Shown piece by piece: positions 5,805 through 39,821 of a stretch of DNA of 64,000 nucleotides; positions within the stretch are counted from its first letter, which is position 1, and each line of letters opens with the position of its first letter. Made by a program: the position numbers and the translations under genes. The notes beneath the pieces were generated by a model that was given only the letters and a program-made list of their open reading frames with translations, made no database searches and had not been told where the DNA came from. The stretch lies in IMG/VR virus record IMGVR_UViG_3300042922_001018; one strand, written 5' to 3'. Source of the stretch: a virus. Taxonomy: Duplodnaviria; Heunggongvirae; Uroviricota; Caudoviricetes.

Positions 5805-6563
5805 CTACCGCAGTTTCTTCGCTGGTACAGCTCCCCGCATGAAGCCAGCGAGGGGAGAAGGCTTCGGAACCGTAGTCGGCGCCGGAGGCGACATGGCTTC
5901 CGCGTACTCGAACGGAACGCCCGCATCCAGCCCGGCAAGGGCAGTGTCCAGTGGGAGCTTCAGATACCTCTGCACGTCTGCGACACCGTTCTGCCGAGCA
6001 TGGGCTACAAGCCTCTTCATGGTGGCTTCGAGGTCCGCATCGGGTACTGACTTCACGGCCTCGGCGAATGCGGGAGCAGCGCGCTTGAAAACAGAGACCG
6101 CTCCAGAACGATGCGCCGCTCGAACCAGCCGGACGAATCGCTCCGAAGAGCCGTTCGAGATGTCACGGAAATGCCCGTACATCTTCGGCGACGTGAACGC
6201 TAGCCGCGTCCCGGCGAACATGCGGCGGTACGGCAACGCCCAGAGTCGGTTACCGGGGATGAAACCGCGCCAACCGTCAACGGCGTGTTGCGCATGCATC
6301 CTGAACCCGATACGCCAGAGGTCCAGGACGAAACCAAGGATGAGCAGGCCGACCGCGAATCCCAAGCCCCACAGCGCGAGCCGTTCGTTGACACGAGCTA
6401 GCCAGGAGAGAGCAGTGCTTACGCCCAGAATCCAGCCAGCAGCGTAGAACACCGACCGAATCAGTCGGGGCTGTTCCTTCCAGCCTTCGCGGAAGAGACG
6501 GAGACCGGTGACGACGAGACGGAACGGCGTGAGGGCAGCGCGCGGGTTGAGCGACAGCGACAT
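5805..6563 (-). CDS. PxEY-tail family protein, membrane-anchored
   Basis: Two TM helices; AGVPFEYAEAM plus Pro-rich tail; start moved to 6563 (TGgTAACAT -10). Confidence 0.75.
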   Translation of the reverse strand: MSLSLNPRAALTPFRLVVTGLRLFREGWKEQPRLIRSVFYAAGWILGVSTALSWLARVNERLALWGLGFAVGLLILGFVLDLWRIGFRMHAQHAVDGWRGFIPGNRLWALPYRRMFAGTRLAFTSPKMYGHFRDISNGSSERFVRLVRAAHRSGAVSVFKRAAPAFAEAVKSVPDADLEATMKRLVAHARQNGVADVQRYLKLPLDTALAGLDAGVPFEYAEAMSPPAPTTVPKPSPLAGFMRGAVPAKKLR

Positions 6564-6573
6564 ACCGGTCATG

Positions 6574-6786
6574 TTACCACACCCGCTCAGAGCGGTCCAT
6601 GCCCGGCTTCTGCCCAATGAGAGAGACCTGTTCTTTCTGCGGGCAGGCTGCTAGGATAGCCCCATGGCACGAGACATCGTAGAACGGCTGCATGGCTCCT
6701 ACCGCGACCCGGAACACGGTGTCGTCGTGGTTTCGCCTCGTCTGCTCGTCGATGCCGAGAACGAAATCAAGCGGCTCCGTCAGCAA
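6574..6786 (-). CDS. Small hypothetical protein (~70 aa)
   Basis: TTG start overlapping upstream TGA; fills the gap between family genes. Confidence 0.45.
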   Translation of the reverse strand: MLTEPLDFVLGIDEQTRRNHDDTVFRVAVGAMQPFYDVSCHGAILAACPQKEQVSLIGQKPGMDRSERVW

Positions 6787-7076
6787 GTAGCTGCGTACTC
6801 CGCCGCCACCCCAGACCTCCAGCCCTGAACCGTCGCCTGGATGGTGCCACCGGCACCGAGGCACGCTCCCGCGTATTCGACACCCACCCCGGCGTTCCAC
6901 AGAGGGAACATGTCCGCGTGGAAGAACTGCCGACCCGCTCGCGTCTTGACCGCGGTGCAGTACCCGTACTGCCAGGTGGTATCGACGCCGGGAGGGACAT
7001 CCGAGAGGGTGAACGGATAGCCGTCCACCAGCTTCGGCTGCCCGTCGGGGAGGACGGTCACGATGTCAAGGTCCAT
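6780..7076 (-). CDS. PxEY-tail family protein
   Basis: WNAGVGVEYAGAC...WRSGVAAEYAATC*. Confidence 0.75.
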   Translation of the reverse strand: MDLDIVTVLPDGQPKLVDGYPFTLSDVPPGVDTTWQYGYCTAVKTRAGRQFFHADMFPLWNAGVGVEYAGACLGAGGTIQATVQGWRSGVAAEYAATC

Positions 7077-7080
7077 GCCA

Positions 7081-7455
7081 TCAGTCCTTGTGGAAAGGGT
7101 GCAACGTCCATGCGGGCAGGTACTCGACCGGGATGCCTGTCCGCCAGCACTCGATAGCGTCGGTCGGCATCACCCCATGCGCCTTGCAGGCTTCGAGGTA
7201 CGCCTCAGGCACACCGGCCGAGTGGAGGGCTGCGATGGCTCCCACCAGTGCATCCTCACCGACGGTATCGTCCATGAACCAGTCATCGGCGAAGTGGAAC
7301 GCGATGGCCGCGTATCGAGCGGGCACTCCACGCGCGTCAAGGATGCCCAGATGCTCACCCGTCAGTCGCCCGGTTGAGAATCTCTTGTCCGCCTGCACGA
7401 CTTCATCGTATCCCAGAGCGGCCCCCGGCGCAACGCCTTCATGCTCCCCGTTCAC
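7081..7455 (-). CDS. PxEY-tail family protein
   Basis: GVPARY, GVPEAY, GIPVEY; GTG start overlaps upstream TGA. Confidence 0.75.
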   Translation of the reverse strand: MNGEHEGVAPGAALGYDEVVQADKRFSTGRLTGEHLGILDARGVPARYAAIAFHFADDWFMDDTVGEDALVGAIAALHSAGVPEAYLEACKAHGVMPTDAIECWRTGIPVEYLPAWTLHPFHKD

Positions 7456-7739
7456 GCGGTCACATACTCCAGAGGGATACCCTGCGACCACAGCTCGTGA
7501 ACTTCACTCAATGAGCGGCCGAGCCGGACGGCCTCAATCGCGTACTCCGCCGGGATGCCCCGTCGTCGAAGCAGGCGGATGTTCGGCCCGTTCACTTCCC
7601 AGAAGCACCCGGAGTCTTCAGCGTACGCCTGAGCGAACGGCGCCGCGTACGACTTCGATACCCCGCACCGCGAGAAGCTCTCCGTCAGTGTCTCGATGAG
7701 GCGCAGCCGGTCAGAACGGCCGACGTAGTCGAAGCTCAT
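7452..7739 (-). CDS. PxEY-tail family protein
   Basis: GIPAEYAI...WSQGIPLEYVTA*. Confidence 0.85.
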   Translation of the reverse strand: MSFDYVGRSDRLRLIETLTESFSRCGVSKSYAAPFAQAYAEDSGCFWEVNGPNIRLLRRRGIPAEYAIEAVRLGRSLSEVHELWSQGIPLEYVTA

Positions 7740-8014
7740 GCGGTCACATACTCCAACGGGACACCGTCAAGCCAGAGCCGGACGGTCTGCTGAGCGGTGT
7801 ATCCTGCCTGCGTCGCGTGCACCGCGTATTCGACAGGGATGCCCTTGAACTGGAGCAGCGCGAGCTGTCCGCCGGTCACCGACGCGAACGCCTCTTCGGC
7901 GTCCACAGCCGCAAGGGCGAATGCCTCGGCGAACTTCACGGAAGCGCCCGCTTCGATGAACGCCTTCTTGCGGCTCCGTACTCGGTTCTCGGTTTCTGCG
8001 AAGTCGTACTTCAT
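7736..8014 (-). CDS. PxEY-tail family protein
   Basis: GIPVEYAV...WLDGVPLEYVTA*. Confidence 0.85.
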   Translation of the reverse strand: MKYDFAETENRVRSRKKAFIEAGASVKFAEAFALAAVDAEEAFASVTGGQLALLQFKGIPVEYAVHATQAGYTAQQTVRLWLDGVPLEYVTA

Positions 8015-8262
8015 GCGGTCAGATACTCCTCAGGTACGCCATCTGTCCACATCTGGATGATGGCCTCCCCTTCATGACCCGCTTCGGAGCCAAGGACGGC
8101 GTATTCCTCGGGGACGCCTGCGTGGAACAGGGCGAAGCCCGGCAGACCTGGCGCACGGTTCATCAGACGCCACACGTATCCGATAGCCTGTTTCACTTCG
8201 AACTCTCGGCGCTCGGTTTCGTCCAGGTCGAGACCAAGACTCTCCGGCGTGTCAGTCACCAC
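8011..8262 (-). CDS. PxEY-tail family protein
   Basis: GVPEEYAV...WTDGVPEEYLTA*. Confidence 0.85.
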   Translation of the reverse strand: MVTDTPESLGLDLDETERREFEVKQAIGYVWRLMNRAPGLPGFALFHAGVPEEYAVLGSEAGHEGEAIIQMWTDGVPEEYLTA

Positions 8263-9082
8263 TCACCGCCGCGAGGTACTCCTGAGGCACGTTGTCCTTG
8301 CTCGCCGCGATGAGCGCCGAAGGCGTGATGCGGTAGTTCATCCCGGCGCGGATGTAGTCCAAGCTGACCCCAGCTTCGAACAGTGAGACGACGGTGGACG
8401 CGCGCTCATCGCCGATGGCGAACAGGGCGGTGTACGTGTCCGCCGCGTGAGCGTACTCGGCCGGGACACCCCGTTGGAATGCGAGCATGACGGACGGAAC
8501 CGAAAGGGTAACTGCGGTCTCGCGCCCTTCGCGCCAGAACTCGCGGCTGAAGGCCTGTGCATAGCCGCTCTCGACACCCTGCGACGTAACGTAGGTCGCG
8601 ATGAACCGTGGAGTGAACTCGTTGAAGCCACGCTCGGGGACCGGGCGTACGAGTGTGCCGCGGACCTTGTCCGACTCCATCTCTACGATACCGGTGAGCG
8701 ACACCGTCGAGTCATCCCAGTCGTCATCCACGAGCCACTTACCCGCTCGCTCCGGGATATCGTACGGGTCCGAGTAGTCATTCGCCGAAACGACGCACCC
8801 GTTGAAGGGGATAGTCCACCCGTACCCATTGCCGTTCCATGTGTGGAGGACACCGTGGAACTCGTACTCCTCCTCGTCGCACCAGGGGGCGTCCTCATCC
8901 GACTCGTACGGTCCGTCGTTCACACCGTCGTAGCCCGGAACCTTGTGCACGTCTTCGGTGCACTCTTGCCACCCGTTGCAGCCCACCGGGCACTCGACAT
9001 GGTTGAGGAACTCCGGCGGCTCGTTCGGGTACTTCTCCGCGTACTCCGTGTCCAGCTCCCGGATGAAAACGTGCGCACTCAT
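8252..9082 (-). CDS. PxEY-tail family protein with acidic Cys/His-rich N-terminal domain
   Basis: Start moved to ATGA overlap at 9082; HVECPVGCNGWQECTEDVH; GVPAEY...NVPQEYLAAVSGD*. Confidence 0.75.
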   Translation of the reverse strand: MSAHVFIRELDTEYAEKYPNEPPEFLNHVECPVGCNGWQECTEDVHKVPGYDGVNDGPYESDEDAPWCDEEEYEFHGVLHTWNGNGYGWTIPFNGCVVSANDYSDPYDIPERAGKWLVDDDWDDSTVSLTGIVEMESDKVRGTLVRPVPERGFNEFTPRFIATYVTSQGVESGYAQAFSREFWREGRETAVTLSVPSVMLAFQRGVPAEYAHAADTYTALFAIGDERASTVVSLFEAGVSLDYIRAGMNYRITPSALIAASKDNVPQEYLAAVSGD

Positions 9083-9897: not shown

Positions 9898-9903
9898 AGC
9901 CCG

Positions 9904-9932
9904 AGTCTACTCGGTGACGGCTGCCACGTCAA
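9904..9932 (-). promoter_or_regulatory. Leaderless promoter; -35 contains upstream stop codon
   Basis: TTGACG(9932-9927)-17-TAGACT(9909-9904)-6-ATG. Confidence 0.75.
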
Positions 9933-11346: not shown

Positions 11347-11384
11347 GGTCTCATGTTACGCGAGAACGGCGCTACTCGCAAGTG

Positions 11385-12037: not shown

Positions 12038-12086
12038 GCGCCCATCCTACCAGAGTTTCAAGTGGCCAGCAAGGCGGCAACCGTGC

Positions 12087-12590: not shown

Positions 12591-12606
12591 GCCTCCAGCC
12601 TACCAG

Positions 12607-13059
12607 CTATCCGAGGAGCGTGGCATACTCGACGGGCACCCCGGTCAAGTACATCGTCACGATGTCCACTACGTCCGTGACGCCGTGGCGGTCCAACGCT
12701 TTCGCGTACTCCACCGGCACTCCGGCCTCGTAGAGGGTTATCACGTCTGCCGTGCCGAACCCCGGAATCGTGACGATGGTGGTGTGGCCGAGCTGCGGTT
12801 CGAGGGCCAGCGCGTATGAGGCAGGGACGCCCTGGTTCAGAACAGCGAGGTACCCCGACCAGTTCGACACCTCCTCCTTGCCGTGCAGCAGCTCGTACTC
12901 CCACTTCACGAAGGTCTGCGAGAAGAACTTGTCCACGCTGAGACCGCTGGCGAGGAAGTGCTTCTCGAACTGGGGCACGATAGCGTCCGGGATTTTCACG
13001 CGTTGCAGGGCGATGTCCCGGAAGTAGTCAACGTCGCCCACCGTCTGTCGGTCAGCCAT
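12607..13059 (-). CDS. PxEY-tail family protein
   Basis: GVPASY, GVPVEY, GVPVEYATLLG*; start moved to 13059. Confidence 0.85.
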   Translation of the reverse strand: MADRQTVGDVDYFRDIALQRVKIPDAIVPQFEKHFLASGLSVDKFFSQTFVKWEYELLHGKEEVSNWSGYLAVLNQGVPASYALALEPQLGHTTIVTIPGFGTADVITLYEAGVPVEYAKALDRHGVTDVVDIVTMYLTGVPVEYATLLG

Positions 13060-13348
13060 CGGCTGCTGCTTTCTTCCGCGCGAAGAACTCACGCCACTCA
13101 GGACTGCGGATGGGGAGCACGATGGCCCCGGCCTTGATAGCAGCTTCTCGACGACTCTTCGTCACATCGTAGTGTTCACGCGGCGTGCCCGGCTTCTGAA
13201 TCCAGGACGGCCGCATACCGATACGGAGCGCCATCTCGTCCAGTTCTTCGCGCGTGTCAGCGAACATGTGGCACCAGATACCACGGACGACGCGTGAACC
13301 GTTCGGGACATCCGCACGCATCATCATGTCATCGACGTAGACGGTCAT
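13052..13348 (-). CDS. DUF4031-family protein
   Basis: MTVYVDD...WCHMFADTREEL...IGM...WIQ...EHYDV...RREAAIKAGA pattern. Confidence 0.8.
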   Translation of the reverse strand: MTVYVDDMMMRADVPNGSRVVRGIWCHMFADTREELDEMALRIGMRPSWIQKPGTPREHYDVTKSRREAAIKAGAIVLPIRSPEWREFFARKKAAADG

Positions 13349-13352
13349 GGCA

Positions 13353-20697: not shown

Positions 20698-20943
20698 TCA
20701 GTCGCCCTGCGGGATGCCTTCGTAGATTTCCTTGCAGGTCGCGCAGACCGGGTACTTCTCCGGCGACTTGTTCGCGACCCAGACCTTGCCGCAGATGGCG
20801 GTCACCGGGACGTTGTCGAACGTCGCACGGATGATGTCTTCCTTGCGGACGTAGTGCGAGAAACGGTCGTGCTCGCCCTCGTCGGTCATCTCCTCTTCGA
20901 GGTTCTCGACCTTGTCTCGTTCCAGAGTGCTTCCCATGCTCAT
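20698..20943 (-). CDS. DUF3039-family protein (actinobacterial, putative Zn-binding)
   Basis: GEHDRFSHYVRKEDI...ICGKVWV...PEKYPVCATCKEIYE matches the DUF3039 pattern. Confidence 0.9.
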   Translation of the reverse strand: MSMGSTLERDKVENLEEEMTDEGEHDRFSHYVRKEDIIRATFDNVPVTAICGKVWVANKSPEKYPVCATCKEIYEGIPQGD

Positions 20944-20949: not shown

Positions 20950-20978
20950 ATGGTAACACGGCGCCGCAAGCGGGTCAA
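20950..20978 (-). promoter_or_regulatory. Leaderless promoter; -35 contains upstream stop codon
   Basis: TTGACC(20978-20973)-17-TACCAT(20955-20950)-6-ATG. Confidence 0.7.
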
Positions 20979-21490
20979 GCCACCAACTCCGCGTACTCGT
21001 ACGGCATTCCGTCCCGCATCAACTCGAACCCGCGTGCCATCCCAGACGGGTGCCCAGCGAAAGCGGCGACCTGAGCAGGCGGATACGACCGGGCCAGCCT
21101 CTTCGCCTCCTCCAGCACAGACCGAGCATCCTCCGACGCCAACGCGTTCCGGCAGAGCGTCTCCATCCGCCATCCGAACGAGTCGAAGAGACGCTGACCG
21201 CGAGTCATCCTCATGAACTGTCGCCACCCGCCCAGCTCGTTCTCACAGACCAGGAAGGCAACCGCGTACTCCCGACGGTTTCGGATGAGGCGCCAGAATC
21301 CTACCGGCACGATGAACCCCGGAGCCTGGTAGGAGGAAGTGTACCTCGGCGCTCGCTGCTCACCCGCGAGCCGGATAGCCGAGCGAGCAATCGTCGTGGG
21401 CAGCATCCGGGCGCCGAAGTACACGAGCAACAGAGCAAGCAGACCGGCCATCACGCAGAGCATCCCAAGGAAGAAAGCGGCCGCAGTCAT
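20975..21490 (-). CDS. PxEY-tail family protein, membrane-anchored
   Basis: N-terminal TM helix; GMPYEYAELVA*. Confidence 0.8.
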   Translation of the reverse strand: MTAAAFFLGMLCVMAGLLALLLVYFGARMLPTTIARSAIRLAGEQRAPRYTSSYQAPGFIVPVGFWRLIRNRREYAVAFLVCENELGGWRQFMRMTRGQRLFDSFGWRMETLCRNALASEDARSVLEEAKRLARSYPPAQVAAFAGHPSGMARGFELMRDGMPYEYAELVA

Positions 21491-21519
21491 GGCTGAAGCC
21501 TACCACCGACCGCCAGTGC

Positions 21520-21993
21520 TCACAAGTCGTAAGCGACCAGGCGACCCTCGCGGTCGTAGCCGACCTGGCCGCAGTCAACCCAACCGACCCATTCCGGCAT
21601 GTCCTTGTAGACGACCGCCGTCTCTTCGACTCGCTCCATCACGAGGACATCCAGCTCCGTACCGTCCGCGCTCGTCCACGTCTCAATCGCGGCATCGGCA
21701 ATCGGAACTTCGCCGGTCTTGCCGAACTTCTCCGACCACAGCGCCTCGCGATAGTTCGCGTTCAGACCATCCTCGTCGGTAGGCACTTTCGCTACACGGT
21801 TGTCGTCGAGCAAGTAGACGGTTCTGGTGCGGCCTTCGATGGCCTCATGCTTCGCAGCGAGTTCGGAATGAAGCGCGTCGTACTTTACGAACAAGTCAGA
21901 GAACGGGTCGATGTCCACTTCCGGCGGGCTACCGACCGCTTCAGCGAAACGACCGTGTTCGTCGCGGTTCACAAGAGCTTCCGCGAACGTCAT
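21520..21993 (-). CDS. Minimal protein-kinase-like (APH/RIO-like fold) protein
   Basis: GRTRTVY loop, VAKV lysine, NYREA helix, LVMERV hinge, terminal DCGQVG...GRLVAYDL. Confidence 0.55.
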   Translation of the reverse strand: MTFAEALVNRDEHGRFAEAVGSPPEVDIDPFSDLFVKYDALHSELAAKHEAIEGRTRTVYLLDDNRVAKVPTDEDGLNANYREALWSEKFGKTGEVPIADAAIETWTSADGTELDVLVMERVEETAVVYKDMPEWVGWVDCGQVGYDREGRLVAYDL

Positions 21994-22643
21994 GCCCGGC
22001 TGTAGGCGGCAATGAAGGGTGGCACAGGGAAGACCTGCTGCGCGTACTCCAGAGCCAGACCCGATTCCAGCGCCGCAAGAGCGTCATGAACATTGAGTGC
22101 CTGGAAGAAGGGTGCGACGCCGTCCGCTCCTCGTTCACCGATGCATGCCGCCGTCCGCTCCGCGAGAGAACGGTGGTCGGTGGCGGTGGCATCCGTCACC
22201 GAGTAGTTGAACTCGCGCATGAGCGGGAAGACGAACGCGTACACGCTCCGCTGAGCGAGGCGCTGGAAATCGAGTCCGCTGAAAGCCAGGCAAGCCCGCT
22301 CTACGCCGCCACCAGGAAGGAGCGAGAGTTCATCCGCCGCTTGGAGGATAGCCACGTACAGCCACGGCTCGCGCGCTGCTATCCGGGTACTGGCCTTCGC
22401 GCTCGGCATCACCCATTCCCCAGGGCGCAAGCCAAGTTCCTTACCCGCCCGGCGGAGCCGTAGGAACAGAACCAGGCGGGGCGCGCCGCACAACACGGCA
22501 ATGAACACAACCGCGGCGATAGCGAAGAGAGACAGCGTAGTCGCGCCATCGAAGCCGAAGAGGTTCTCCAACGTGTGACCCACTACCATAGCGACCGTGA
22601 CGGCAACCGCTACGGCCGCGATGCTGATGTTGAGCTGTCGCAT
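21990..22643 (-). CDS. PxEY-tail family protein, membrane-anchored
   Basis: Two TM helices; GLALEYAQQVF; start moved to 22643. Confidence 0.75.
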   Translation of the reverse strand: MRQLNISIAAVAVAVTVAMVVGHTLENLFGFDGATTLSLFAIAAVVFIAVLCGAPRLVLFLRLRRAGKELGLRPGEWVMPSAKASTRIAAREPWLYVAILQAADELSLLPGGGVERACLAFSGLDFQRLAQRSVYAFVFPLMREFNYSVTDATATDHRSLAERTAACIGERGADGVAPFFQALNVHDALAALESGLALEYAQQVFPVPPFIAAYSRA

Positions 22644-22644
22644 G

Positions 22645-23253
22645 TCACACCGCCATCGTCTGCGCGTATTCGAGCGAGATGCCCTGCTCCAACGCGTCCA
22701 ACGCGAATGCCGGTCCCAGACGGTCGAAGTAGATGAAGGTCGTCGAGTTCCCGTGCTTCTGCGCGGCATCCATCGTGCGCGCGACGAGCGACCGGGACTC
22801 TTCCGCGGAAGCGTGCTCAATGAGCGGCAACAGCTCCCGCACGAAGGTCGTCATGTAGTCGTCGGTTGCGGCGACGAAGTTCTGACCGATGAAAGCGGGG
22901 GCAGCTTTCGTGTACATGTCGAAACCGCTGAACCGCTGCTCTTTCCCAATCGTGGCGATAGCGACGTACATCTCCGGCTCGTCACGGAGCAGAGGGCGAG
23001 TCTCACGAGTGATGTACAACTCCGGCGGCGCCATCAGAAGGCGCCTAGCCGTCGCCACAACCTGCACGTACAGGAAGTGGCGGTGCCACAACCGAGCGAT
23101 GTAGATGGAAGCCGGGACCGTAACGAGGACGCAGAACACAATGGCCCACTCTGCCCACGGCACCAGTTTCAGCGCCGCAGCGCAAGCAAGAGAAACCAGC
23201 ATGCCGACGACGATGGTGATACCCGCCGCGGCCTTACGGTGCTCGATGTCCAT
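22645..23253 (-). CDS. PxEY-tail family protein, membrane-anchored
   Basis: Two TM helices; GISLEYAQTMAV*; TAGACA-17-TACTCT promoter. Confidence 0.8.
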   Translation of the reverse strand: MDIEHRKAAAGITIVVGMLVSLACAAALKLVPWAEWAIVFCVLVTVPASIYIARLWHRHFLYVQVVATARRLLMAPPELYITRETRPLLRDEPEMYVAIATIGKEQRFSGFDMYTKAAPAFIGQNFVAATDDYMTTFVRELLPLIEHASAEESRSLVARTMDAAQKHGNSTTFIYFDRLGPAFALDALEQGISLEYAQTMAV

Positions 23254-24127: not shown

Positions 24128-24313
24128 TTACTTCGCCGTGGGCGCGCCAGCCTTGCGACCAGCCTTCATCAGCGCGCCGAGAGCGACGACCACGATGAGC
24201 ACCGGGCCGATGACCATGGCGACGTTGATGAGACCCACGATGACGAACGCAGCGCCGACCGCGAGGAGCAGAAGGAGCAGAAGGCCGATGGCGAAAGCGG
24301 GAGACCAGTTCAT
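24128..24313 (-). CDS. Small two-TM membrane protein (61 aa)
   Basis: Highly hydrophobic with basic tail; TTGACA-18-TACCAT promoter. Confidence 0.65.
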   Translation of the reverse strand: MNWSPAFAIGLLLLLLLAVGAAFVIVGLINVAMVIGPVLIVVVALGALMKAGRKAGAPTAK

Positions 24314-25106: not shown

Positions 25107-25474
25107 GTCAGCTCCCGCGCATACTCAGCCGGAATCTTCGCCAGCTCGGTCCATCTTGCGACTGCTTCGCGGAAGTAGACGGTCTTCAGCCAAGCCTCCA
25201 ACGTGCGTGCCCTATCCCATGCGTAAGTGGTGTGCTCGGGGATAACGAAGATGGTGCCGAACCGCTCGCGAATCTCTTCGGCTACCGGGTGGTCAACCGA
25301 TGCGCCAACCGCCGAGATGAGGGCGAGCACACCCAGGCTGTTCGTGTCTAGCCGGGCAGCGAACCGGTCCTGCACCCGGCGGTGGTTCGCGTCCAGCTTC
25401 GCGCTGGAAAAGACGGAAGCGAAGATGCTGAGGGCATTCTCCACGTCGCCGTCCAACTCGGCTACACCGGTCAC
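25100..25474 (-). CDS. PxEY-tail family protein, AVGAxxxHPV triplet
   Basis: AVGASVDHPVAEEIR; KIPAEYARELTW*. Confidence 0.8.
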   Translation of the reverse strand: MTGVAELDGDVENALSIFASVFSSAKLDANHRRVQDRFAARLDTNSLGVLALISAVGASVDHPVAEEIRERFGTIFVIPEHTTYAWDRARTLEAWLKTVYFREAVARWTELAKIPAEYARELTW

Positions 25475-25995
25475 CGCAAGAAGTCCTCGATGGCGGAAAT
25501 GTGCTCGGGAAGCAGACCGACCTTCTCGTACGGCGCGATGACCAGCATCTCGACGAAGTTCTTCGCGGCAGCGGCTTTACCGAGGTCACCCCACGTGTCA
25601 CCGAAGTCGTTCTCGTCCTCCAGCATGTCGTCGAGCCACACGACCTTGCGGTTCTCCGCAGCCCAGCCCGGCAGCGCATCCTCGACAGCATCCAGCTTCC
25701 ACCAGATAGCGCGGGCCGACCCGTAGTTCGGGTCCGGAACCGCTTCCAGCTCCCGGCCGAAGTAACGAGCGAACGCTGCATTCGCATCAGGCGTTGTCCA
25801 GCTCGTGTGGAGCAGCAGGACAGAGTCGGTATCCTCGGCGATGCGCACAAGGTCAGCGATGCGTTCCGTCAAGATGACGACATCCCCGAAACCTGACACT
25901 TCATCGACGGCGAACTCGCCGACCACACGGTCATGCGGGGCAGGGGCGAACGGAGCGATGACTCCGTCGATGTCGATGAGGATGACTCCGGGCAT
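25471..25995 (-). CDS. HAD-superfamily phosphatase (HAD-SAK / RNA-repair-associated type)
   Basis: Motif I LIDIDGV, motif II HTSW, conserved WK, motif IV VWLDD. Confidence 0.75.
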   Translation of the reverse strand: MPGVILIDIDGVIAPFAPAPHDRVVGEFAVDEVSGFGDVVILTERIADLVRIAEDTDSVLLLHTSWTTPDANAAFARYFGRELEAVPDPNYGSARAIWWKLDAVEDALPGWAAENRKVVWLDDMLEDENDFGDTWGDLGKAAAAKNFVEMLVIAPYEKVGLLPEHISAIEDFLR

Positions 25996-27905: not shown

Positions 27906-28448
27906 TCAAATCGCAGCCGCGTACTCTGGCGCCACACCAGCGCGGATACCCGCGCTCGCCGCGTACACGTCACCGACCACTCGGAGATAAGCAGCGCCGC
28001 CGAGAACGTCATCTTCGATGATGTCCAAGAACTCGTTCACGCCCTCTGGACCGTTCATCCGGCCGGTAGAAGCGAGCGCCTCTATCAGGGCGGTCAGCTC
28101 CACAACGCTCCGTCGCCGGTACTTGCGGCGGTGATAGACCACGTGTGCCGCCCATGACTCCAGCGACTCATTCCGCGAGTAATCAGTGTTCCGCAGGAAC
28201 GCCCGATGCACGGACCGGACAAGAGCAACACCTAGACGCGGAGCGCTCCCCACATGGAACGAGAAGATACGGTAGTCCGCGAACGCGCCAGCGGCGCGGT
28301 GCAGGATGTTCGCGACACGCACCTCCGCCGGGTCAGCACCGAAGGCTCGCAAGATGAGAAGCCGTTGGATGTTTGGAAACATGGCCAGCAGAATCAGGAT
28401 GCTCGCAGTCAGGCTGCCGCACAGCCACGCGAACTCGACGAGGTTCAT
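27906..28448 (-). CDS. PxEY-tail family protein, membrane-anchored
   Basis: N-terminal TM; GVAPEYAAAI*. Confidence 0.75.
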   Translation of the reverse strand: MNLVEFAWLCGSLTASILILLAMFPNIQRLLILRAFGADPAEVRVANILHRAAGAFADYRIFSFHVGSAPRLGVALVRSVHRAFLRNTDYSRNESLESWAAHVVYHRRKYRRRSVVELTALIEALASTGRMNGPEGVNEFLDIIEDDVLGGAAYLRVVGDVYAASAGIRAGVAPEYAAAI

Positions 28449-29089
28449 CGAGCGGCCTGCACGTATTCCAGAGGCACGCCCGAGCGCACCGCGACCAGTG
28501 CCATCGAAGAGTTCTTCGCAGTCGCGAGGAACGAGATAGCGGTCGAAGCATCCACCGCCTCGAAGACGCTCCGAAGCTCCGCCGGGTCATCCTCATCCGG
28601 ATAGCTGAGAACAGCTTCCGTCAGCAGCACACGCTGTTCGGGAGCCAGTGAATCCCAGACGTGCGCCTCAGTGAGAGCCTTCGCCTTCCGCGTGAGCAGT
28701 TGGACTATGGGCGTGTCCTTCGGGAGGATATCGAACCGGCTGTTCACCTCGCTGAACGCAATCAGCATGGACGGCGTCTTCCGAGCAATCTCGAAGAACG
28801 GGGTCCACATTCCACCCAGCATTTGCCGGGCCTGGAGAACAGAACCACCGTGCGCTCGTGCCTGACGAGTCACCCACCGCACCATCCGCTTACGGTCCCA
28901 CGCGCGGTATCCGAACTGCGCCGCCACCCCGCAGACAGCCGCGATAATGTATGGCACGAAGGACGCCCACCCCGGCTCTAAGTCGAGTACGAGGCGGGTC
29001 GGCACGGAAACGAGGACGTAGGTCACGACGAAAGTGATACCGGCGCCCAGTGTCCGCTTGCGCTCAACAGTCCAGAACGGCTTCCTCAT
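28445..29089 (-). CDS. PxEY-tail family protein, membrane-anchored
   Basis: Two TM; GVPLEYVQAAR*. Confidence 0.8.
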   Translation of the reverse strand: MRKPFWTVERKRTLGAGITFVVTYVLVSVPTRLVLDLEPGWASFVPYIIAAVCGVAAQFGYRAWDRKRMVRWVTRQARAHGGSVLQARQMLGGMWTPFFEIARKTPSMLIAFSEVNSRFDILPKDTPIVQLLTRKAKALTEAHVWDSLAPEQRVLLTEAVLSYPDEDDPAELRSVFEAVDASTAISFLATAKNSSMALVAVRSGVPLEYVQAAR

Positions 29090-29613
29090 AGTGCCCCAGC
29101 ATACTCGGGTGGGATGCCTTCGCGCAACGCCAGCAGTGACTTCTCGATGTCCACAGTCGCCCGGAGGTACGCCGTCATCTCCTGGACCGGTGTCCCGTCG
29201 AGTATCGCGCGGGCAACGGCATCTCGCAGCTCGAACGTGTACCGGACGAGTCCCGCTTCCAGGAACGCATCAACGAACTCGTCAATCGCATTTTCCTTCG
29301 CGTCGCCTTCAAGACCGGAGTCGAGAATCAGATGGCGTCCCAGCTCGCCCGCGTTTCCCAGCCCGTCCCCAGCCTGCCGGTACCCTTCGATGATGGCATC
29401 CGTGAGACCGATACGATTGCCGATGAGCAGCGAGCCACGCGCCGCCACTCGAAGACCCCAGGCGGACTCGGCCATTCTCATCAGCGATGCTGCGAGGCTT
29501 CGCTCGGAATCCCGGCGCCGCTTCGCGGAACGCGCCACTGAGATGATGCTCGCCAGCAGGACGGCAACCGAGAGCGTTACCAAGAGAGCGCCTAGGGTAT
29601 CCATGACGGTCAC
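29086..29613 (-). CDS. PxEY-tail family protein, membrane-anchored
   Basis: One TM; GIPPEYAGAL*. Confidence 0.8.
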   Translation of the reverse strand: MTVMDTLGALLVTLSVAVLLASIISVARSAKRRRDSERSLAASLMRMAESAWGLRVAARGSLLIGNRIGLTDAIIEGYRQAGDGLGNAGELGRHLILDSGLEGDAKENAIDEFVDAFLEAGLVRYTFELRDAVARAILDGTPVQEMTAYLRATVDIEKSLLALREGIPPEYAGAL

Positions 29614-30260
29614 GCGAGCGCTTTCGCGTAGTCCAACGCTACGCCATCATGAAGCATCTGCGTGGCGAAGCGCACCGACTTCAGCTCACGAAGGTAGGCG
29701 ATGACCTCTTCCGGGGTGTTGTGCCCGTCGCGCACCAAGAAAAGCAGCTCTGTCGTCAACTGGTCCTGGACATCTCCCACCGACTGCCCGAACGCGTACA
29801 CGAAATCGTCCAGACGGTCCCCGAAAAGGACCGCGGCGTCCGTCGGCGTCAGTAGATTGCTCGCGATGCGCGAGTACACTTTCACGGACTCTTCCCGCGC
29901 CCGGAACACGCACCGGAAGATAGCTGCGGCTACAGCCGGGTTTCGCTTCCTGTGCGAGTGGGGGACGATGACATCGAAGTCGTAAAAGCTCAGGCGCACA
30001 AGCTGGTCAGCGTGGAGACCACTACGCTTTCCGAACAGCCACACCGAGAAGTAGTCCGAGTTCGTCAGGGTAAGCCCACACCCAGCTCCAGCTAGACCGG
30101 TGACGATAATGAGCGGGAGCAGGACCAGCACGGTGGCGATAGTGGACCCCGAGCTTGCCCCGAAGAAGAGCAGCACGAAGACCGTCGAGACGAAGCCCGC
30201 CACACCCAACACGCCCAGGAGAACGCCGACAGCGGCAATGGCCCGCGGCGAAATCAGCAT
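29610..30260 (-). CDS. PxEY-tail family protein, membrane-anchored
   Basis: Two TM; GVALDYAKALA*; TTGACG-18-TACACT promoter. Confidence 0.8.
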   Translation of the reverse strand: MLISPRAIAAVGVLLGVLGVAGFVSTVFVLLFFGASSGSTIATVLVLLPLIIVTGLAGAGCGLTLTNSDYFSVWLFGKRSGLHADQLVRLSFYDFDVIVPHSHRKRNPAVAAAIFRCVFRAREESVKVYSRIASNLLTPTDAAVLFGDRLDDFVYAFGQSVGDVQDQLTTELLFLVRDGHNTPEEVIAYLRELKSVRFATQMLHDGVALDYAKALA

Positions 30261-30292: not shown

Positions 30293-30748
30293 TCAAGCCG
30301 GAGCGCCCGGCTCGAATGGCAGGTCGCGGCGCTCGTACCACTTCGCGATGGTGCCGTTGAGCTGCTCCAGAGTGATTTCGTGGACAGCGCGCTCGCCGTC
30401 CTTCCACACCCAGACCACGAGCGGCTGGTGGTCCTGGTACTTCTGGACCTGCTTGTTCCAGGCCGGGTCGAAGACGAGGATGCTCAGGCAACCGGGGAGA
30501 CGGCTGAAGCCGCGCAGCGTAATCTGCTGTCCCTGCGTCGGCTCTGAGAGCTGGAGGGAACCATCTGGCTGCCGGTTCGCGGGCTTGAACTCGAACAGGA
30601 TGAACCGGTTCGTCTTCGCATCATGGAAGACACCGTCGAGGTCAGCGGGGCGCTTGACCTCGGGCACCCCCGGAGGCCGGAACCAGGACGTGAACCGTCC
30701 CATGCCCAGCTTTGCGTAACTCTCGTTCCTGTATCCTGCTCCAGCCAT
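30293..30748 (-). CDS. Probable PD-(D/E)xK nuclease-superfamily protein
   Basis: PADLDGVF...FILFEFKP followed by helix with GQ, typical D...ExK arrangement. Confidence 0.6.
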   Translation of the reverse strand: MAGAGYRNESYAKLGMGRFTSWFRPPGVPEVKRPADLDGVFHDAKTNRFILFEFKPANRQPDGSLQLSEPTQGQQITLRGFSRLPGCLSILVFDPAWNKQVQKYQDHQPLVVWVWKDGERAVHEITLEQLNGTIAKWYERRDLPFEPGAPA

Positions 30749-30785: not shown

Positions 30786-31847
30786 TCAGCGATTCCCGAT
30801 GAACAACGGGTCACCCGCGGCCACTGGACGGTTCGAACATGAGGTGACGACAGTGCCCTCGGCGTACGGGAGCTGCGTGAGGCACTCTGGAAGAAGCTCC
30901 CCGGTTCCGGGGACAGTGGCCGACGTGACACGAGGGAACAGCGACTCAGTCCGCAGCTCCCAGCCGCCGTCCACTTCGACGGCTTCACCCGTGGCTCGGG
31001 GGAAAGCGTGCGGTAGGTCCAACGCGCAGACGCGGAATGAGCTGGGAGCATCCGGAGACGCACTGTTCGTGGACACGAGCACACCGACAAGGTCTCGGTA
31101 GTAGCCTTCACCGCGCTCGAAGTACCAGTCGTCTGAGAACCCGTACCCCTGGCTCACGATGTAATCGACCTGCGCGCGATTCGCGTACGCTTCGGGGAAG
31201 CCGTCCACCGACCCGCCCGCCATCCGAATGCGCCAGCGCGCGTCCGGCACTGTAGCGCTCACAGTCACCGTAGCGCAGGCGCGTGTCAACCCGGCAATCT
31301 CCCACTCGACCGACTCGATACGCGCAGTCTCGAAGTCCGGATGCATGTTGAAGACGGTCTGCTCCGGCGCATCGCCTGCAAGAGTGAACCGCGTGTAGAA
31401 TCCGCCCTTCCCCTGCGCGTCCAGAAGGTTCGAGACCAGTTCCCATACCGAGACCCCTGAAGGCAGCGGAGGAACCCCGGATACGTTGTACGTGTAGATG
31501 TTCTCCACCGCCACTTCGACCGGTTCCGGCGCCGTACTGGCGTTCATGAAGAAGCTGCCCGATTCGGACTCGGCTAGCGCCGCCCACCCGTCTTCCGAAG
31601 TCACAACTGACACGGACTCTGAAGAGGACTGCTGATACTCTCCGTTTGCGATGAACGCAGAGTTCTGCTCGCTGGCAACTGTCCGCAGCTCGGCAGTCAC
31701 ATCCGAGTCTTGCGCAGCAGCCGTCGCGTTCTGCCACGCCCAGAAACCCGCGAGTACCAGGGCGACTACCGCGAGTATGGCTCCGACCCAGACAAGCTCA
31801 TGGTCGTACCATCTTTCGTCTTCCGGCTCAATGTCTTCAGTGCTCAT
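30786..31847 (-). CDS. Membrane-anchored extracytoplasmic protein with type IV pilin-like N-terminal helix
   Basis: ELVWVGAILAVVALV...AQDSDVTAELRTVASEQ...NGEY resembles a pilin alpha1 helix; no G|F cleavage site. Confidence 0.5.
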   Translation of the reverse strand: MSTEDIEPEDERWYDHELVWVGAILAVVALVLAGFWAWQNATAAAQDSDVTAELRTVASEQNSAFIANGEYQQSSSESVSVVTSEDGWAALAESESGSFFMNASTAPEPVEVAVENIYTYNVSGVPPLPSGVSVWELVSNLLDAQGKGGFYTRFTLAGDAPEQTVFNMHPDFETARIESVEWEIAGLTRACATVTVSATVPDARWRIRMAGGSVDGFPEAYANRAQVDYIVSQGYGFSDDWYFERGEGYYRDLVGVLVSTNSASPDAPSSFRVCALDLPHAFPRATGEAVEVDGGWELRTESLFPRVTSATVPGTGELLPECLTQLPYAEGTVVTSCSNRPVAAGDPLFIGNR

Positions 31848-32209: not shown

Positions 32210-32225
32210 GACCACAGTCTACCCC

Positions 32226-33048: not shown

Positions 33049-33057
33049 GACATCAGT

Positions 33058-34439: not shown

Positions 34440-34471
34440 ACGTCCATCGTACCGATGTCAGGGTGCAGATG

Positions 34472-36018: not shown

Positions 36019-36081
36019 GCGGCAAGGATACGTGATGCTTGACTCCGTGTCAACCCGGCAGACCCATGGTAGGGTGTACGC

Positions 36082-36633
36082 ATGGAACCATACGCCCTCG
36101 ACCTGTTCTCCGGCGAGAACCTCCCAGCTTTCATCTGGGGTGTCGGCATCTTCGTCGCCATCAGCGCAGTCGGAACCCTCGGCTTCTTCGTCCTCGGCCG
36201 ACGTGACTTCCTCACCTGGCTGAACCTCATCGTCTGCGTCGCCGTCGGCGGTCTCATCGGGTGGGGCGTCGCCAAAGACACCGTTGCGGCAAACACCAAC
36301 GACGCTCGCATCGCGAACCTCATCGAGCAGACCTCCGACATCTACGGCGTCGAGCTGACTGAAGAACAAGCCGAAGACCTCAGACCTCCCGTCGGCCAGC
36401 CGCTCTCCAGCTACGAGGAGTTCGGCAGCACGACCATCGAGTTCATGGACGGCGTGATTCCTGTGGTCCTCGTCTGGGGCGAAGGCAACCTCTTCTACGC
36501 GGTCCAAGACACGCCAAACTCTCTGCCCACGCTGGAGCAGATGGCCGAGCAGGAAGAGCAGCCCACCGAGACCCCGCTCCCTGAAGACTCGGTTCCCGCC
36601 GACTCCGTCCCGGAGGAGACTCCCGCACCGTAG
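36082..36633 (+). CDS. Two-TM membrane protein with Pro/Glu-rich tail
   Basis: Two hydrophobic helices; TGgTAGGGT extended -10 at 36067-36075; very high GC3. Confidence 0.75.
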   Translation: MEPYALDLFSGENLPAFIWGVGIFVAISAVGTLGFFVLGRRDFLTWLNLIVCVAVGGLIGWGVAKDTVAANTNDARIANLIEQTSDIYGVELTEEQAEDLRPPVGQPLSSYEEFGSTTIEFMDGVIPVVLVWGEGNLFYAVQDTPNSLPTLEQMAEQEEQPTETPLPEDSVPADSVPEETPAP

Positions 36634-36636
36634 TTC

Positions 36637-36685
36637 GATACGACTGAGGCCCAGGGTTGACAGCCCTGGGCCTCAGTCGTATCCT
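36637..36685 (+). promoter_or_regulatory. Perfect 20-bp inverted repeat carrying a sigma70 promoter (-35 in the loop)
   Basis: Arms 36637-36656/36664-36683; loop TTGACAG; TTGACA-17-TATCCT-6-ATG(36692). Confidence 0.8.
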
Positions 36686-36691
36686 GGACTC

Positions 36692-37396
36692 ATGGGACAC
36701 GCAACCGCTTCTATCTACCTCGCCGCCTCCGACCTCGTAAGCACCCGCCCGAACGACATCCTCCACGCCGGAATCGCGGAGTGGAGCGACACGCTGTCGG
36801 ACCGTCACGACAGCCCCGAACCCGGCTATGTGACCATGCGCGAGCTGAACTCTCGCGAAGCGGCCGGTTACTCCATCGGCCCCGACGACGTGCACAGCGG
36901 CGCTTCCGTCGTCGTCCCGGTCACCACGTCCACCATCACGAAGACGCGCAACGTGAAGCACACGGTCACGGCCGAAGAACTCAAACTCCTCCGACGCGGC
37001 GTCGTCTACCCGTACTTCGACAAGCAGACCTTCGGTCCGCACGTCACCAAAATCGAGGTCGTCGCCCTGCCCAAGGTGCGCGCACCCAAGGCAGAAGCCA
37101 CCGAAGGCGCGTCCGTCACCAAGTACGTGGTCATCGGCGCCGGAAGCGTCTACGCGACGGGCAACACCCAGGCGGAGGCGCGAGCGAAGGCCATCGAACT
37201 GATGAAGAACAAGGAGAACATCAGCTCGCTGAGCATCGAGGCTCGCATCACCCGCGCAGACGGCAACCCGGCGCTCGTCCGCATCACGCGGCCCGAACCG
37301 GAGACATCGACCGTGACGCTCCGTGTCAAGACTGTCGAACCGAAGCCCGGTGCCAAGACTGAAGGCTATCTCGTCGCCTTCAGCTACCACTGCTGA
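36692..37396 (+). CDS. Hypothetical protein (234 aa)
   Basis: Strong GC3 bias, own promoter, followed by a terminator. Confidence 0.75.
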   Translation: MGHATASIYLAASDLVSTRPNDILHAGIAEWSDTLSDRHDSPEPGYVTMRELNSREAAGYSIGPDDVHSGASVVVPVTTSTITKTRNVKHTVTAEELKLLRRGVVYPYFDKQTFGPHVTKIEVVALPKVRAPKAEATEGASVTKYVVIGAGSVYATGNTQAEARAKAIELMKNKENISSLSIEARITRADGNPALVRITRPEPETSTVTLRVKTVEPKPGAKTEGYLVAFSYHC

Positions 37397-37398
37397 CC

Positions 37399-37446
37399 TA
37401 AACGAGGAGCGCCCCGCCAGAAGCCTGGCGGGGCGCTCCTCGTTTA
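37399..37446. terminator. Bidirectional terminator between convergent genes
   Basis: 22-bp perfect arms TAAACGAGGAGCGCCCCGCCAG/CTGGCGGGGCGCTCCTCGTTTA, 4-nt loop. Confidence 0.85.
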
Positions 37447-37875
37447 CTTCGGGGGAAGCGAGGTCCAGGACTTGACGGTTTCGAGTTCGTTCGTCTCCGA
37501 GTTGTAGCGGACCAGAACCCTGTTCCCGTCAGCGTCGGTGCCCAACGCCGGGGAATCGACGCCGAAGTCAGAGCTATCGCCCTTGTCGAACGTAATCCCG
37601 TAGACGCGCTCCGCCTCACGCTTCAGAATCTCATCGGGGTTGAAAGCGGACTCCCATACCAGCATCTCAACCAGGATGGTAACGCCACCGATAAGGATGG
37701 CCGCGATGAGAGCGCCACCCATCCGCTTGAAGAAGTCGGCTCCAGTTCGGTGAGCACCGTCCGACTCATCGCGAAATACGAAGAGCACGATGCCACCGAT
37801 GAGCACCGTCAACACTATCATCGCGATAGGGCCGTACACCGGGACGAACTCGCGCGCATCCGAAAGGTCAATCAT
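37444..37875 (-). CDS. Two-TM membrane protein
   Basis: Start moved to 37875 (MIDLSD); two TM then AERVYGITF. Confidence 0.7.
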   Translation of the reverse strand: MIDLSDAREFVPVYGPIAMIVLTVLIGGIVLFVFRDESDGAHRTGADFFKRMGGALIAAILIGGVTILVEMLVWESAFNPDEILKREAERVYGITFDKGDSSDFGVDSPALGTDADGNRVLVRYNSETNELETVKSWTSLPPK

Positions 37876-38575
37876 CCGACACCTCCGCGAACACAGCGCG
37901 TGCCAGTTCCAACGGGATGCCTTGCTGGAGCGCAGCAAGAGCCGCGGTCGGCCCCAGGTCGTTCATGTACGTCACGATGCCGTCCACGTCGCCGCCTTCC
38001 TGAAGCAGGGCGGCATACGCTTTCAGCTCCGCTGTCAACTGCGTTCCCGAGGTCGGTACGATGCTCTTCTCTACCAGAGCTGCGAAGTACCCGCTGAGAA
38101 CCTCGGCCACCGCATCGAGGTCATGGCCCGGCTCCTCGTCCAGGAACTGAAGCCGCTCCTCCAGCTTCTTCGCGGCATCCCTGCTGCTCACTGCGCGCCA
38201 GAGATTATGGTCCGCAGCATTCATGACGCGCGTGAACGCTCCCTGCCGCGTGATGCGTGCCGTGACGAGGGCAGCATACGGGAACTCGATGTCACCCAGT
38301 TTCTTCCCACCCCGCTGGAACGGAAGAAGCGGCGCCATGTCCTGTTGGAGCGAGCGAGCCTCTGCATCGAAGGAGGCAGGCGCGCCTACCTTCTTCAGCC
38401 ATTTCATCGGCCCGAAGAGCTTGCGTGAGGAGAAGATGATGAGCGAGGCCGAGAAGATGCCGGAGCCAACAACCGTCCAGCTCCCGGTGTAGAAACCGAC
38501 GCCGACCATCACAGCCATCGTGAACAGCCCGAACACAAAGAGGTTGCGGATGGACCGATAGTCCTTCGGCATCAT
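37868..38575 (-). CDS. PxEY-tail family protein, membrane-anchored (EL variant)
   Basis: Two TM; QQGIPLELARAVF. Confidence 0.75.
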   Translation of the reverse strand: MMPKDYRSIRNLFVFGLFTMAVMVGVGFYTGSWTVVGSGIFSASLIIFSSRKLFGPMKWLKKVGAPASFDAEARSLQQDMAPLLPFQRGGKKLGDIEFPYAALVTARITRQGAFTRVMNAADHNLWRAVSSRDAAKKLEERLQFLDEEPGHDLDAVAEVLSGYFAALVEKSIVPTSGTQLTAELKAYAALLQEGGDVDGIVTYMNDLGPTAALAALQQGIPLELARAVFAEVSDD

Positions 38576-39201
38576 CTCATCGCCTCCATGTATTCCAGCG
38601 GAACTCCCGCTTCCAGACCCTTCTCCAGATACGAAACGCCGAACTTCTGGATGTAGAAGACCATTGTATGCACATCCGTGCCCGAGCGCAAGGCGCCGAC
38701 AATATGCTTCATCCCGACGACCTTCGCTATAGCGCAGTCAGTCGTGTTCATCCAGCCGCCGCCCTGATGCTGGAACGCGCGCAGCAGCTCAAACAGCTCG
38801 AAGATGTCCGCCCCGCCCGCATCGCCGTATGCCTCGGCTACCCACGCAGCGGCCGGGAATCCTTCCTTCGCGCCGTCCGCACGGCGGATAGCGAAACGCT
38901 GAGAGGTCAGGAACAGCAGCGGGTGTGAAGTCCGCCACTTCCGCTTCGACGCGGCTATGGCGTTGAGCGCCTCCTCATCCTTCGGAAGGTGATGCCACGA
39001 CAGCCAGACTCGTGTCGGTATCCGCCAGGCGGACAGGAAGAAAGCTGCGGCGAGCACGAGGCCGAGAAGACCGAAGCCCAGGTTCACGGTACCCGACTCA
39101 ACATCAGCGCCCGTGAACCCGACAACCGTCATCATCAGGGTTGGGCCAAAGATGATGACGAAGCTGACGATGCCCAGCGCCCACAGCCGCGAAGACTTCA
39201 T
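38572..39201 (-). CDS. PxEY-tail family protein, membrane-anchored
   Basis: Two TM; GVPLEYMEAMR*; start moved to 39201. Confidence 0.8.
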   Translation of the reverse strand: MKSSRLWALGIVSFVIIFGPTLMMTVVGFTGADVESGTVNLGFGLLGLVLAAAFFLSAWRIPTRVWLSWHHLPKDEEALNAIAASKRKWRTSHPLLFLTSQRFAIRRADGAKEGFPAAAWVAEAYGDAGGADIFELFELLRAFQHQGGGWMNTTDCAIAKVVGMKHIVGALRSGTDVHTMVFYIQKFGVSYLEKGLEAGVPLEYMEAMR

Positions 39202-39821
39202 CAGCGAACCGCGTACTCGACGGGGACGCCGTTCTCCAGTGCGTCCAAAGCCGCGCCCGGTGGCACCTGTTCGAGATAGGCGATGATGGTATCGCGCTCC
39301 ACGCCCGCCTCGCGGAGTCGGACGATACGTGTCAGCCAATCGCGCAGGCTTGCAGGGGCCGGACGCCAGTTCTGGCGAGTGCGACCGTACATGGCCTGGA
39401 AGTAGTAGCGAGTGTCTTCGCCAAGAGCGACAGCATCGCTGCCTTGAAGGGCGAGCAACAGCTCCGCCAAATCGGAATCCGCCATGTATCCGTGGCCGTC
39501 ATGACGGTAGAACCTGATGACCGCCAGCGTTGACGGAACATCCCGGAGCTGCCGCATACGGAGATGCTTGCCCAACTTCCGAAAGATGTCCGCGTACTTT
39601 CGATTCACACCATGACGGCGCAGCCACCACACCACCGTCCACTTCGGCCAACGGTCACGGATGATGTGCCAGACCAGAGTGAACACGATGAACGTAGCGA
39701 CCAGCGCAATGGGCACAGCCCACCAGCCGAGGATGAGGTACGTCGCCGTGGAAAGTACAGCTCCCGTGACGAGGTAGGTGATAACCGCAGCGAAGCCCGC
39801 CCGGTTGTTCGGCTTAGCCAT
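39201..39821 (-). CDS. PxEY-tail family protein, membrane-anchored
   Basis: Two TM; GVPVEYAVR*; start moved to 39821. Confidence 0.8.
   Translation of the reverse strand: MAKPNNRAGFAAVITYLVTGAVLSTATYLILGWWAVPIALVATFIVFTLVWHIIRDRWPKWTVVWWLRRHGVNRKYADIFRKLGKHLRMRQLRDVPSTLAVIRFYRHDGHGYMADSDLAELLLALQGSDAVALGEDTRYYFQAMYGRTRQNWRPAPASLRDWLTRIVRLREAGVERDTIIAYLEQVPPGAALDALENGVPVEYAVR

Follow-up and report, generated by a model that had tools for sequence, protein, structure and literature searches.

Why does the same C-terminal tag close both soluble proteins and proteins anchored in a membrane, and which side of that membrane does it face? The question is raised by a stretch of 64,000 nucleotides (the window, meaning the whole stretch of DNA analysed here) from the IMG/VR virus record IMGVR_UViG_3300042922_001018. 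The window belongs to a contig of 450,372 bp in a Joint Genome Institute (JGI) metagenome, has a GC content of 62%, and carries almost all of its genes on the minus strand. The stretch is also found in three soil-metagenome DNA runs, and no RNA runs are listed among the matching sequencing runs. The host is probably an actinobacterium. Our results indicate that eleven small proteins encoded here are probably anchored in the membrane through one or two helices at the N-terminus, and that the tag-bearing module at their C-termini is predicted to face the cell interior.

The tag belongs to a large family. From third-position GC and start-codon overlap, we modelled 97 minus-strand genes. The pattern [IVLM][PA]x[ED][YF], lying <=40 residues from the C-terminus, is present in 66 of the 97 gene products, against 1.6 (maximum 6) expected from shuffled proteins, so the family is real and dominates the window; a looser form of the pattern is present in 79/97, against 7.5 expected from shuffles. 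The membrane-anchored members have about 70 tagged soluble neighbours. The soluble tagged proteins have a median isoelectric point (pI) of 5.2, with 3 of 57 above 7, and the cytoplasmic parts of the membrane-anchored members are mostly basic (median pI 8.8; 7/11 above 7). At the DNA level, the 21-27 nt that encode the motif are the sole recurrence and their third positions vary, which indicates that conservation acts at the protein level; a repeated DNA cassette was dropped as a candidate for the same reason.

The initial annotation had described eleven members with one or two N-terminal transmembrane (TM) helices followed by basic residues, a helical body, and the tag, and every one of these genes and features was recovered. 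All 11 are real minus-strand genes: independent gene calls support 5 of them and full-length orthologues in a related 88-kb element support 6. The calls of the metagenome pipeline match the modelled starts of the genes beginning at 20975 (171 aa), 21990 (217 aa), and 22645 (202 aa), and identical database proteins exist for the models at 38572 (209 aa), 21990 (217 aa), and 29086 (172 aa). The members share one plan, in which an N-terminal anchor is followed by a basic stretch, a helical body, and a terminal G-[IV]-P-x-E-Y motif. Helices were located by Kyte-Doolittle hydropathy with a 19-residue window and a threshold of 1.5, and the members, named below by their first coordinate, are as follows (residue numbers refer to the protein).

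5805-6572, minus strand, 255 aa: helices at about residues 40-60 (weaker) and 65-83; basic body; unit at residues 208-224, GVPFEYA; Pro-rich tail.
20975-21490, minus strand, 171 aa, as in the pipeline call: one helix at residues 5-23 behind an uncharged 4-aa stub; unit at residues 156-167, GMPYEYA.
21990-22643, minus strand, 217 aa: hairpin at residues 4-22/36-54 with an acidic 13-aa loop; 5 Lys/Arg after the second helix; unit at residues 184-201, GLALEYA, then a 16-aa tail.
22645-23253, minus strand, 202 aa: hairpin at residues 10-28/37-55; unit at residues 180-197, GISLEYA.
27906-28448, minus strand, 180 aa: one helix at residues 6-24 behind an acidic stub; unit at residues 161-177, GVAPEYA.
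28445-29089, minus strand, 214 aa: basic N-terminal stub (5 Lys/Arg); hairpin at residues 17-35/42-60 with a 6-aa acidic loop; 6 Lys/Arg after the second helix; unit at residues 196-210, GVPLEYV.
29086-29604 from the ATG (to 29613 from a GTG start), minus strand, 172 aa: one helix, then RSAKRRRD; C-terminal unit GIPPEYA.
29610-30260, minus strand, 216 aa: hairpin at residues 13-31/41-59; unit at residues 199-212, GVALDYA.
37868-38575, minus strand, 235 aa: helix at residues 12-30 and a weaker second one at about residues 33-50, then RKLFGPMKWLKK; unit at residues 208-225, variant GIPLELA; acidic tail.
38572-39201, minus strand, 209 aa: hairpin at residues 9-27/41-59 with an acidic 13-aa loop; unit at residues 190-205, GVPLEYM.
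39201-39821, minus strand, 206 aa: hairpin at residues 13-31/36-54 with a 4-aa loop; 5 Lys/Arg after the second helix; unit at residues 186-204, GVPVEYA.

Three members (20975, 27906, and 29086) thus have a single helix and eight have a hairpin with an outer loop of 4-13 residues. Six of the hairpins (21990, 22645, 28445, 29610, 38572, and 39201) have two helices above the threshold; the second segment of 5805 and of 37868 scores lower, below 1.5, and was assigned from reading the sequence. The tag is degenerate in three members (GISLEY in 22645, GLALEY in 21990, GIPLEL in 37868), and extra tails extend beyond it in 5805 and 21990. The clustering in three blocks (20975-23253, 27906-30260, and 37868-39821) is as had been claimed, with the addition that block 1 also contains an untagged soluble gene, 21520-21993. 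Consecutive TM genes overlap by 4 nt at 28445-28448, 29086-29089, and 38572-38575, and at 29610-29613 if the GTG start of 29086 is used; those meeting at 39201 overlap by 1 nt. These overlaps suggest translational coupling inside the blocks.

Topology was assigned from hydropathy and the positive-inside rule. Within the 15 residues that follow the last helix there are 0-6 Lys/Arg per protein, about 33 in total in the 10 genes scored directly; 37868 stands outside these ten, with its charges counted beyond the weaker second helix. Together, the stubs and loops that point outward (4-13 aa) contain 1 Lys/Arg versus 9 Asp/Glu. The body and tag are therefore predicted to be cytoplasmic in 11/11, in agreement with the placement that the initial annotation had proposed. 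With an outer loop of merely 4-13 residues, almost nothing would be exposed outside the cell. The stubs of the single-helix members (MTAA, MNLVE, and MDTLG) have no Lys/Arg, 2-6 Lys/Arg follow the helix, and inspection of the three sequences found no lipobox Cys in register. Because the stubs are uncharged or acidic, no lipobox is present, and the basic cluster comes right after the helix, we read these members as N-out/C-in anchors. A cleavable signal peptide or lipoprotein leader was considered for them and dropped, since there is no basic n-region and the basic cluster follows the helix. One long helix in 39201, where the AlphaFold2 (AF2) model draws a helix over residues 7-69, was dropped as well, because a run of 44 hydrophobic residues between two basic flanks is in keeping with a hairpin.

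The window also encodes untagged membrane proteins, at 42808-43374, 37444-37875, 30786-31847 (minus strand), 36082-36633 (plus strand), and 24128-24313 (minus strand). The C-terminal parts of 42808-43374, 37444-37875, 36082-36633, and 30786-31847 are acidic or neutral, which weakly suggests that the larger part of each lies outside. With these four read as outward-facing, the tag in this window accompanies a cytoplasmic C-terminal domain: the tagged membrane proteins are the ones whose basic, inner side bears a large C-terminal part. We note that the N-terminus of 42808-43374 resembles a Sec signal peptide, and that 24128-24313 is a bare 61-aa hairpin that is conserved in the related element.

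What, then, is the tag? It is the last unit of a 26-29-residue helical-hairpin repeat (helix, G-[IV]-P-x-E-Y, helix) and not a free peptide. This GVPxEY repeat is uncurated and undescribed. A unit hidden Markov model (HMM) of 19 positions, derived from sequences of the window, detects 2-5 units in most soluble members. Each TM member has exactly one, which lies at the extreme C-terminus in 11/11 and scores 7.8-17.3 bits. The G, P, E, and Y are invariant over more than 150 units. The canonical double unit is 47 residues long with a 26-residue period. Upstream of the canonical unit, the TM members have a conserved segment, "G..xxhhxYL......AL.AL..", which the unit HMM does not score. In an hhalign comparison of the TM family with the small double-unit proteins (84% probability, 37 columns), the "G..xxhhxYL" helix of this segment aligns with the first GVPxEYA unit, so the TM members appear to end in one degenerate and one canonical unit. 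Against one other soluble subfamily, the match covers the C-terminal end only (22 columns, 58% probability), and against another no reliable match was obtained (16% probability). As judged from these profile-profile comparisons, the module is common to the subfamilies, with similarity between their bodies not detected. The AF2 model of the double-unit protein 7736-8014 consists of short packed helices with a predicted local distance difference test (pLDDT) score of 93.9; that of TM member 39201-39821 is all-helical with a mean pLDDT of 79.6 and 86-92 in the C-terminal module. In these models, each G-h-P turn is predicted to be flanked by helices of 4-10 residues.

The repeat is not confined to this element. 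An exhaustive profile search with the double unit gave 795 proteins at E <= 1e-3 and 263 at E <= 1e-10, and we assigned the best 150 of the profile matches to classes. Among these 150, an N-terminal lipobox leader is present in 31 and a leader or anchor of another type in 21; 24 are polytopic and BlaR1/M56-like, and in these the array follows the last TM helix; 74, mostly small proteins of this element family, have no leader. Pfam finds Peptidase_M56 on the matches tested (P0012, P0014, P0020, and P0031), and the source names among the matches include "blaR1" and a protein from a Planctomycetota metagenome-assembled genome. In the units of the relatives, T or S replaces the P of GVPxEY. In BlaR1, the protease is inside and the C-terminal domain outside; in keeping with this, at the last helix of the M56 matches there are 105 Lys/Arg on the protease side versus 52 on the tail side. 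Since the arrays in lipoproteins and M56 tails of other phyla are extracytoplasmic, the repeat is not intrinsically cytoplasmic. Peptidase_M56 has no Pfam match on any TM member; only the repeat is common to them and the M56 proteins. Many lipoprotein-class relatives (P0008, P0013, P0018, P0093, and others) carry C-x-[TR]-[RK]-Y-[VI]-Y-V immediately behind the lipobox Cys, and ahead of the repeat array they have an N-terminal domain of ~200 aa that is uncharacterised.

The extracytoplasmic arrays of these relatives (the 31 lipobox and 24 M56-like proteins, with their charge bias) are the reason to consider that the anchors of the eleven members are signal anchors or signal sequences that display the module outside. 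We regard this as highly improbable here. It would place the C-terminal side outside against the Lys/Arg bias of 11/11, both basic flanks of all eight hairpins would have to be outside, and in the single-helix members the uncharged or acidic stubs and up to 6 Lys/Arg after the helix would block Sec export, and no lipobox is present. Roughly 70 soluble members, moreover, have no leader of any kind.

An 88-kb contig obtained from a different sample and syntenic with the window (loci L004, L008, and L010) contains orthologues with anchor and tag for 6 of the TM members.

5805: orthologue L004:13130-13807, 225 aa; two TM helices and tag kept, tail absent.
20975: orthologue L008:9397-9951; 32% identity over the C-terminal 114 aa.
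22645: orthologue L008:8782-9396; 41% identity over the full length; TM helices and tag kept.
29610: orthologue L008:4167-4817, 216 aa; 45% identity.
37868: orthologue L010:6726-7409; 52% identity; the variant GIPLEL motif (Y-to-L) and the acidic tail kept.
39201: orthologue L010:5927-6547; 44% identity.

When the six orthologue pairs are summed, the last 40 residues are the best conserved, at 52% identity, followed by the body at 44% and the anchor at 35%. In place of 27906, 28445, and 29086, the relative has a 70-aa protein consisting solely of an N-out helix, a basic stretch, and one unit (L008:4814-5026). Of 38572, only the last 54 aa are retained, in a 61-aa module-only counterpart with two units and no TM helix (L010:6544-6729). 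A third element encodes an additional single-helix member with the TM-type module (L007:5284-5853). The conservation of the orthologues and the existence of minimal forms indicate that the anchor-plus-module design is under selection and that the module is able to stand alone. Neither the untagged 21520-21993 (157 aa) nor TM member 21990 has a counterpart in the relative between the orthologues of 22645 and 20975, which gives the region 21520-22643 the look of a local insertion or duplication. New here are the TM subset, its conservation, and the two minimal forms of 70 aa and 61 aa.

The computations establish the architecture, the identity of the repeat, the conservation, and the predicted topology and fold. 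Taken together, these observations suggest the following picture. A two-unit module (degenerate plus canonical, ~40-45 aa) would close a helical cytoplasmic body of ~100 aa, and this body would sit behind a minimal anchor, which is a single N-out/C-in helix in some members and in the others a hairpin whose outer loop has 4-13 residues. The TM members would then present at the inner membrane face the same module that ~70 acidic soluble neighbours present in the cytosol. The module may serve to bind one partner common to the family, or else other members of it, with the TM versions localising the interaction to the membrane. We tentatively prefer this reading, a cytoplasm-facing binding module tethered at the membrane, in which the binding is inferred, and we would put it somewhat short of an even chance. 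Two features of the unit favour it: this is a folded repeat that also occurs internally, and its relatives include ones on proteins that are already exported. The docking, oligomerisation, or tethering of a lattice that the initial annotation had envisaged is plausible on this reading.

Several observations weigh against it. By the looser pattern, the tag rate is similar in membrane proteins (11/16) and in all genes (68/82), so the TM subset may have no special role, and the topology is predicted from hydropathy and charge alone. The occurrence of the same repeat outside the cytoplasm in other phyla implies that its ligand is generic or is different here. With the TM members and repeat units as queries, no named family for the module or the bodies was found in Pfam, PHROGs, NCBIfam, or PADLOC, and a sequence profile search found no PDB chain with the repeat. 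Foldseek against the PDB and AFDB and a wide VIA-align comparison gave no significant match (best Z 5.8; designed alpha/alpha toroids, E about 1). First experiments on SHOCT, an analogous domain taken up below, did not support oligomerisation (PMC3581485).

The tag rate also bears on a different explanation, in which there is no shared partner and the module is an inherited, stable helical C-terminal cap in fast-evolving tandem paralogues, each with its own function, for example as small membrane modulators. The TM members would then be paralogues that acquired hydrophobic N-termini, consistent with tandem genes, some overlapping by 4 nt, and with weak relatedness beyond the tag (29% identity over 164 aa for 21990 and 22645; also 5805 with 21990, and 37868 with 39201). 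Gene content varies in the way expected of such paralogues: four TM genes here correspond to one plus the 70-aa mini-protein in the relative, and 21520 and 21990 have no counterpart. Equal tagging of membrane and other proteins fits as well, as does a DNA-level repeat limited to the motif nucleotides, with conservation at the protein level. An inherited cap does not readily explain, however, why the module remains recognisable on subfamilies whose bodies have no detected similarity, or why it is the best-conserved segment in the orthologue pairs. Its survival as a 61-aa protein and as a 70-aa TM-plus-unit protein points to a function of its own, and the invariant G, P, E, and Y exceed the needs of a cap. 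We therefore consider this explanation a serious one but rather unlikely.

Neighbouring genes with recognisable products are all syntenic in the related element.

2-733, plus strand: Fic-like protein.
3553-5568, minus strand: NAD-dependent DNA ligase.
13052-13348, minus strand: DUF4031.
20698-20943, minus strand: DUF3039.
25471-25995, minus strand: HAD_SAK_2 domain protein.

Among the untagged neighbours, the sole matches in Pfam and PHROGs were HAD_SAK_2 and a PHROG of unknown function; the 21520-21993 product weakly matches phrog_4301, whose function is likewise unknown. Just upstream of TM block 2, an untagged 151-aa product (30293-30748, minus strand) is 93% identical to its orthologue, where its neighbours are 40-65% identical; it has no family match. 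ESM Atlas look-alikes for 30293 and for TM member 28445 are weak leads only, phage-like in the case of 30293. A 322-aa open reading frame on the plus strand (2419-3387) contains an uninterrupted run of ~30 aspartates, and the overlapping frame is poly-Met. Word-based searches, whether started from 22645 or from the alignment of all 11 members, returned only this element's own proteins, and a homologue search from a five-unit soluble member returned none. A WXG100-like signal of type VII secretion was dropped because the W-x-x-G...EY likeness is superficial and YxxxD/E is lacking.

Most of a 60-kb stretch of a 450-kb mobile element is given to proteins that have nothing in common but a small C-terminal module, and the membrane-anchored subset provides the first spatial constraint on it, a predicted position on the cytoplasmic side, right at the membrane, in this element. 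The natural 61-aa and 70-aa minimal forms are ready reagents for structural and interaction work. Discovery of the ligand would annotate hundreds of proteins among the profile matches, including the outer tails of BlaR1-like proteases and lipoproteins.

These proteins are also the closest relatives by sequence. M56 tails and lipoproteins of ~350-470 aa (e.g. Planctomycetota MBN2581710.1) carry the same unit as 28-29-residue "DLIRLRxxGV[TSP]xEY..AGY" repeats, and the 47-column double-unit profile matches them with E values of 1e-20 to 1e-30 over 6-13 stretches. Motif, spacing, and C-terminal position are alike in those arrays and in this element. The arrays differ in being longer (5-13 units), in lying behind a lipobox leader or the last M56 helix and hence outside the cytoplasm, and in having mostly T/S for P. 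The TM members, in contrast, have 1-2 units, predicted to be cytoplasmic, and with a bare anchor in front they carry neither a protease nor any other known domain.

Type IV secretion offers a second comparison and, with it, a further explanation: the module may be an address label that a transfer, secretion, or loading machine of the element recognises in the cytoplasm, and the family a library of cargo or effectors whose TM members are inserted C-in and then extracted. Folded C-terminal signal domains exist, namely, XVIPCD in Xanthomonas type IV effectors and BID in Bartonella. About 70 of the 97 genes combine N-terminal parts that vary with an extreme C-terminus that is conserved, a pattern that does resemble an effector repertoire, and type IV effectors and this family alike have one C-terminal element common to soluble and inner-membrane proteins. 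The Dot/Icm type IVB system of Legionella exports about 80 transmembrane effectors, which insert into the inner membrane first, require the C-terminal signal to be presented to the cytoplasm, and have only short loops in the periplasm (PMC11602083). The TM members correspond to this design, with all 11 predicted C-in and outer loops of 4-13 aa. The initial annotation had taken a cytoplasmic tag to argue against an injection signal; that step is not supported, since the Legionella effectors need exactly C-in topology and short outer loops (PMC11602083), and with the same architecture here, topology does not discriminate for or against an export signal. Other evidence speaks against a label. No secretion system or coupling ATPase was seen within the 64-kb window, the internal copies (2-5 per protein) would be superfluous for a signal, and homologous arrays occur on lipoproteins and M56 tails that are already exported. 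The module is predicted to be a folded repeat, unlike the disordered tail of most type IV signals. A further difference from the Legionella case is the probable actinobacterial host. We judge an address label to be unlikely; if true, it would mean a large new cargo system in actinobacterial mobile DNA. More speculative still, and in our view improbable, is a combined scheme in which the module is a cytoplasm-read handle of a library of >100 proteins, some soluble and others C-in membrane proteins whose outer loops are minimal, that a machine of the element loads, exports, or assembles, whether by an actinobacterial counterpart of the two-step export of type IV transmembrane effectors or as a sub-membrane lattice nucleated by the TM members.

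The preferred reading, a binding module tethered at the membrane, finds its counterpart in SHOCT (PF09851), which is likewise short, bihelical, mostly C-terminal, and present on many unrelated proteins, membrane-anchored ones included. Proposed roles of SHOCT are oligomerisation or the building of complexes on the inner membrane face, and for short SHOCT-like bihelical domains, which occur on disparate proteins, the proposal is the assembly of sub-membrane complexes (PMC11237479). The two differ in motif and have no sequence match: the SHOCT and DUF1707 Pfam models gave no match for 10 members at E <= 1 or for 24 double units at E <= 10, and the module described here is a true tandem repeat with extracytoplasmic relatives. 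By analogy of use and without sequence kinship, SHOCT-like domains are the nearest described analogue of the module that these eleven proteins probably hold at the membrane.

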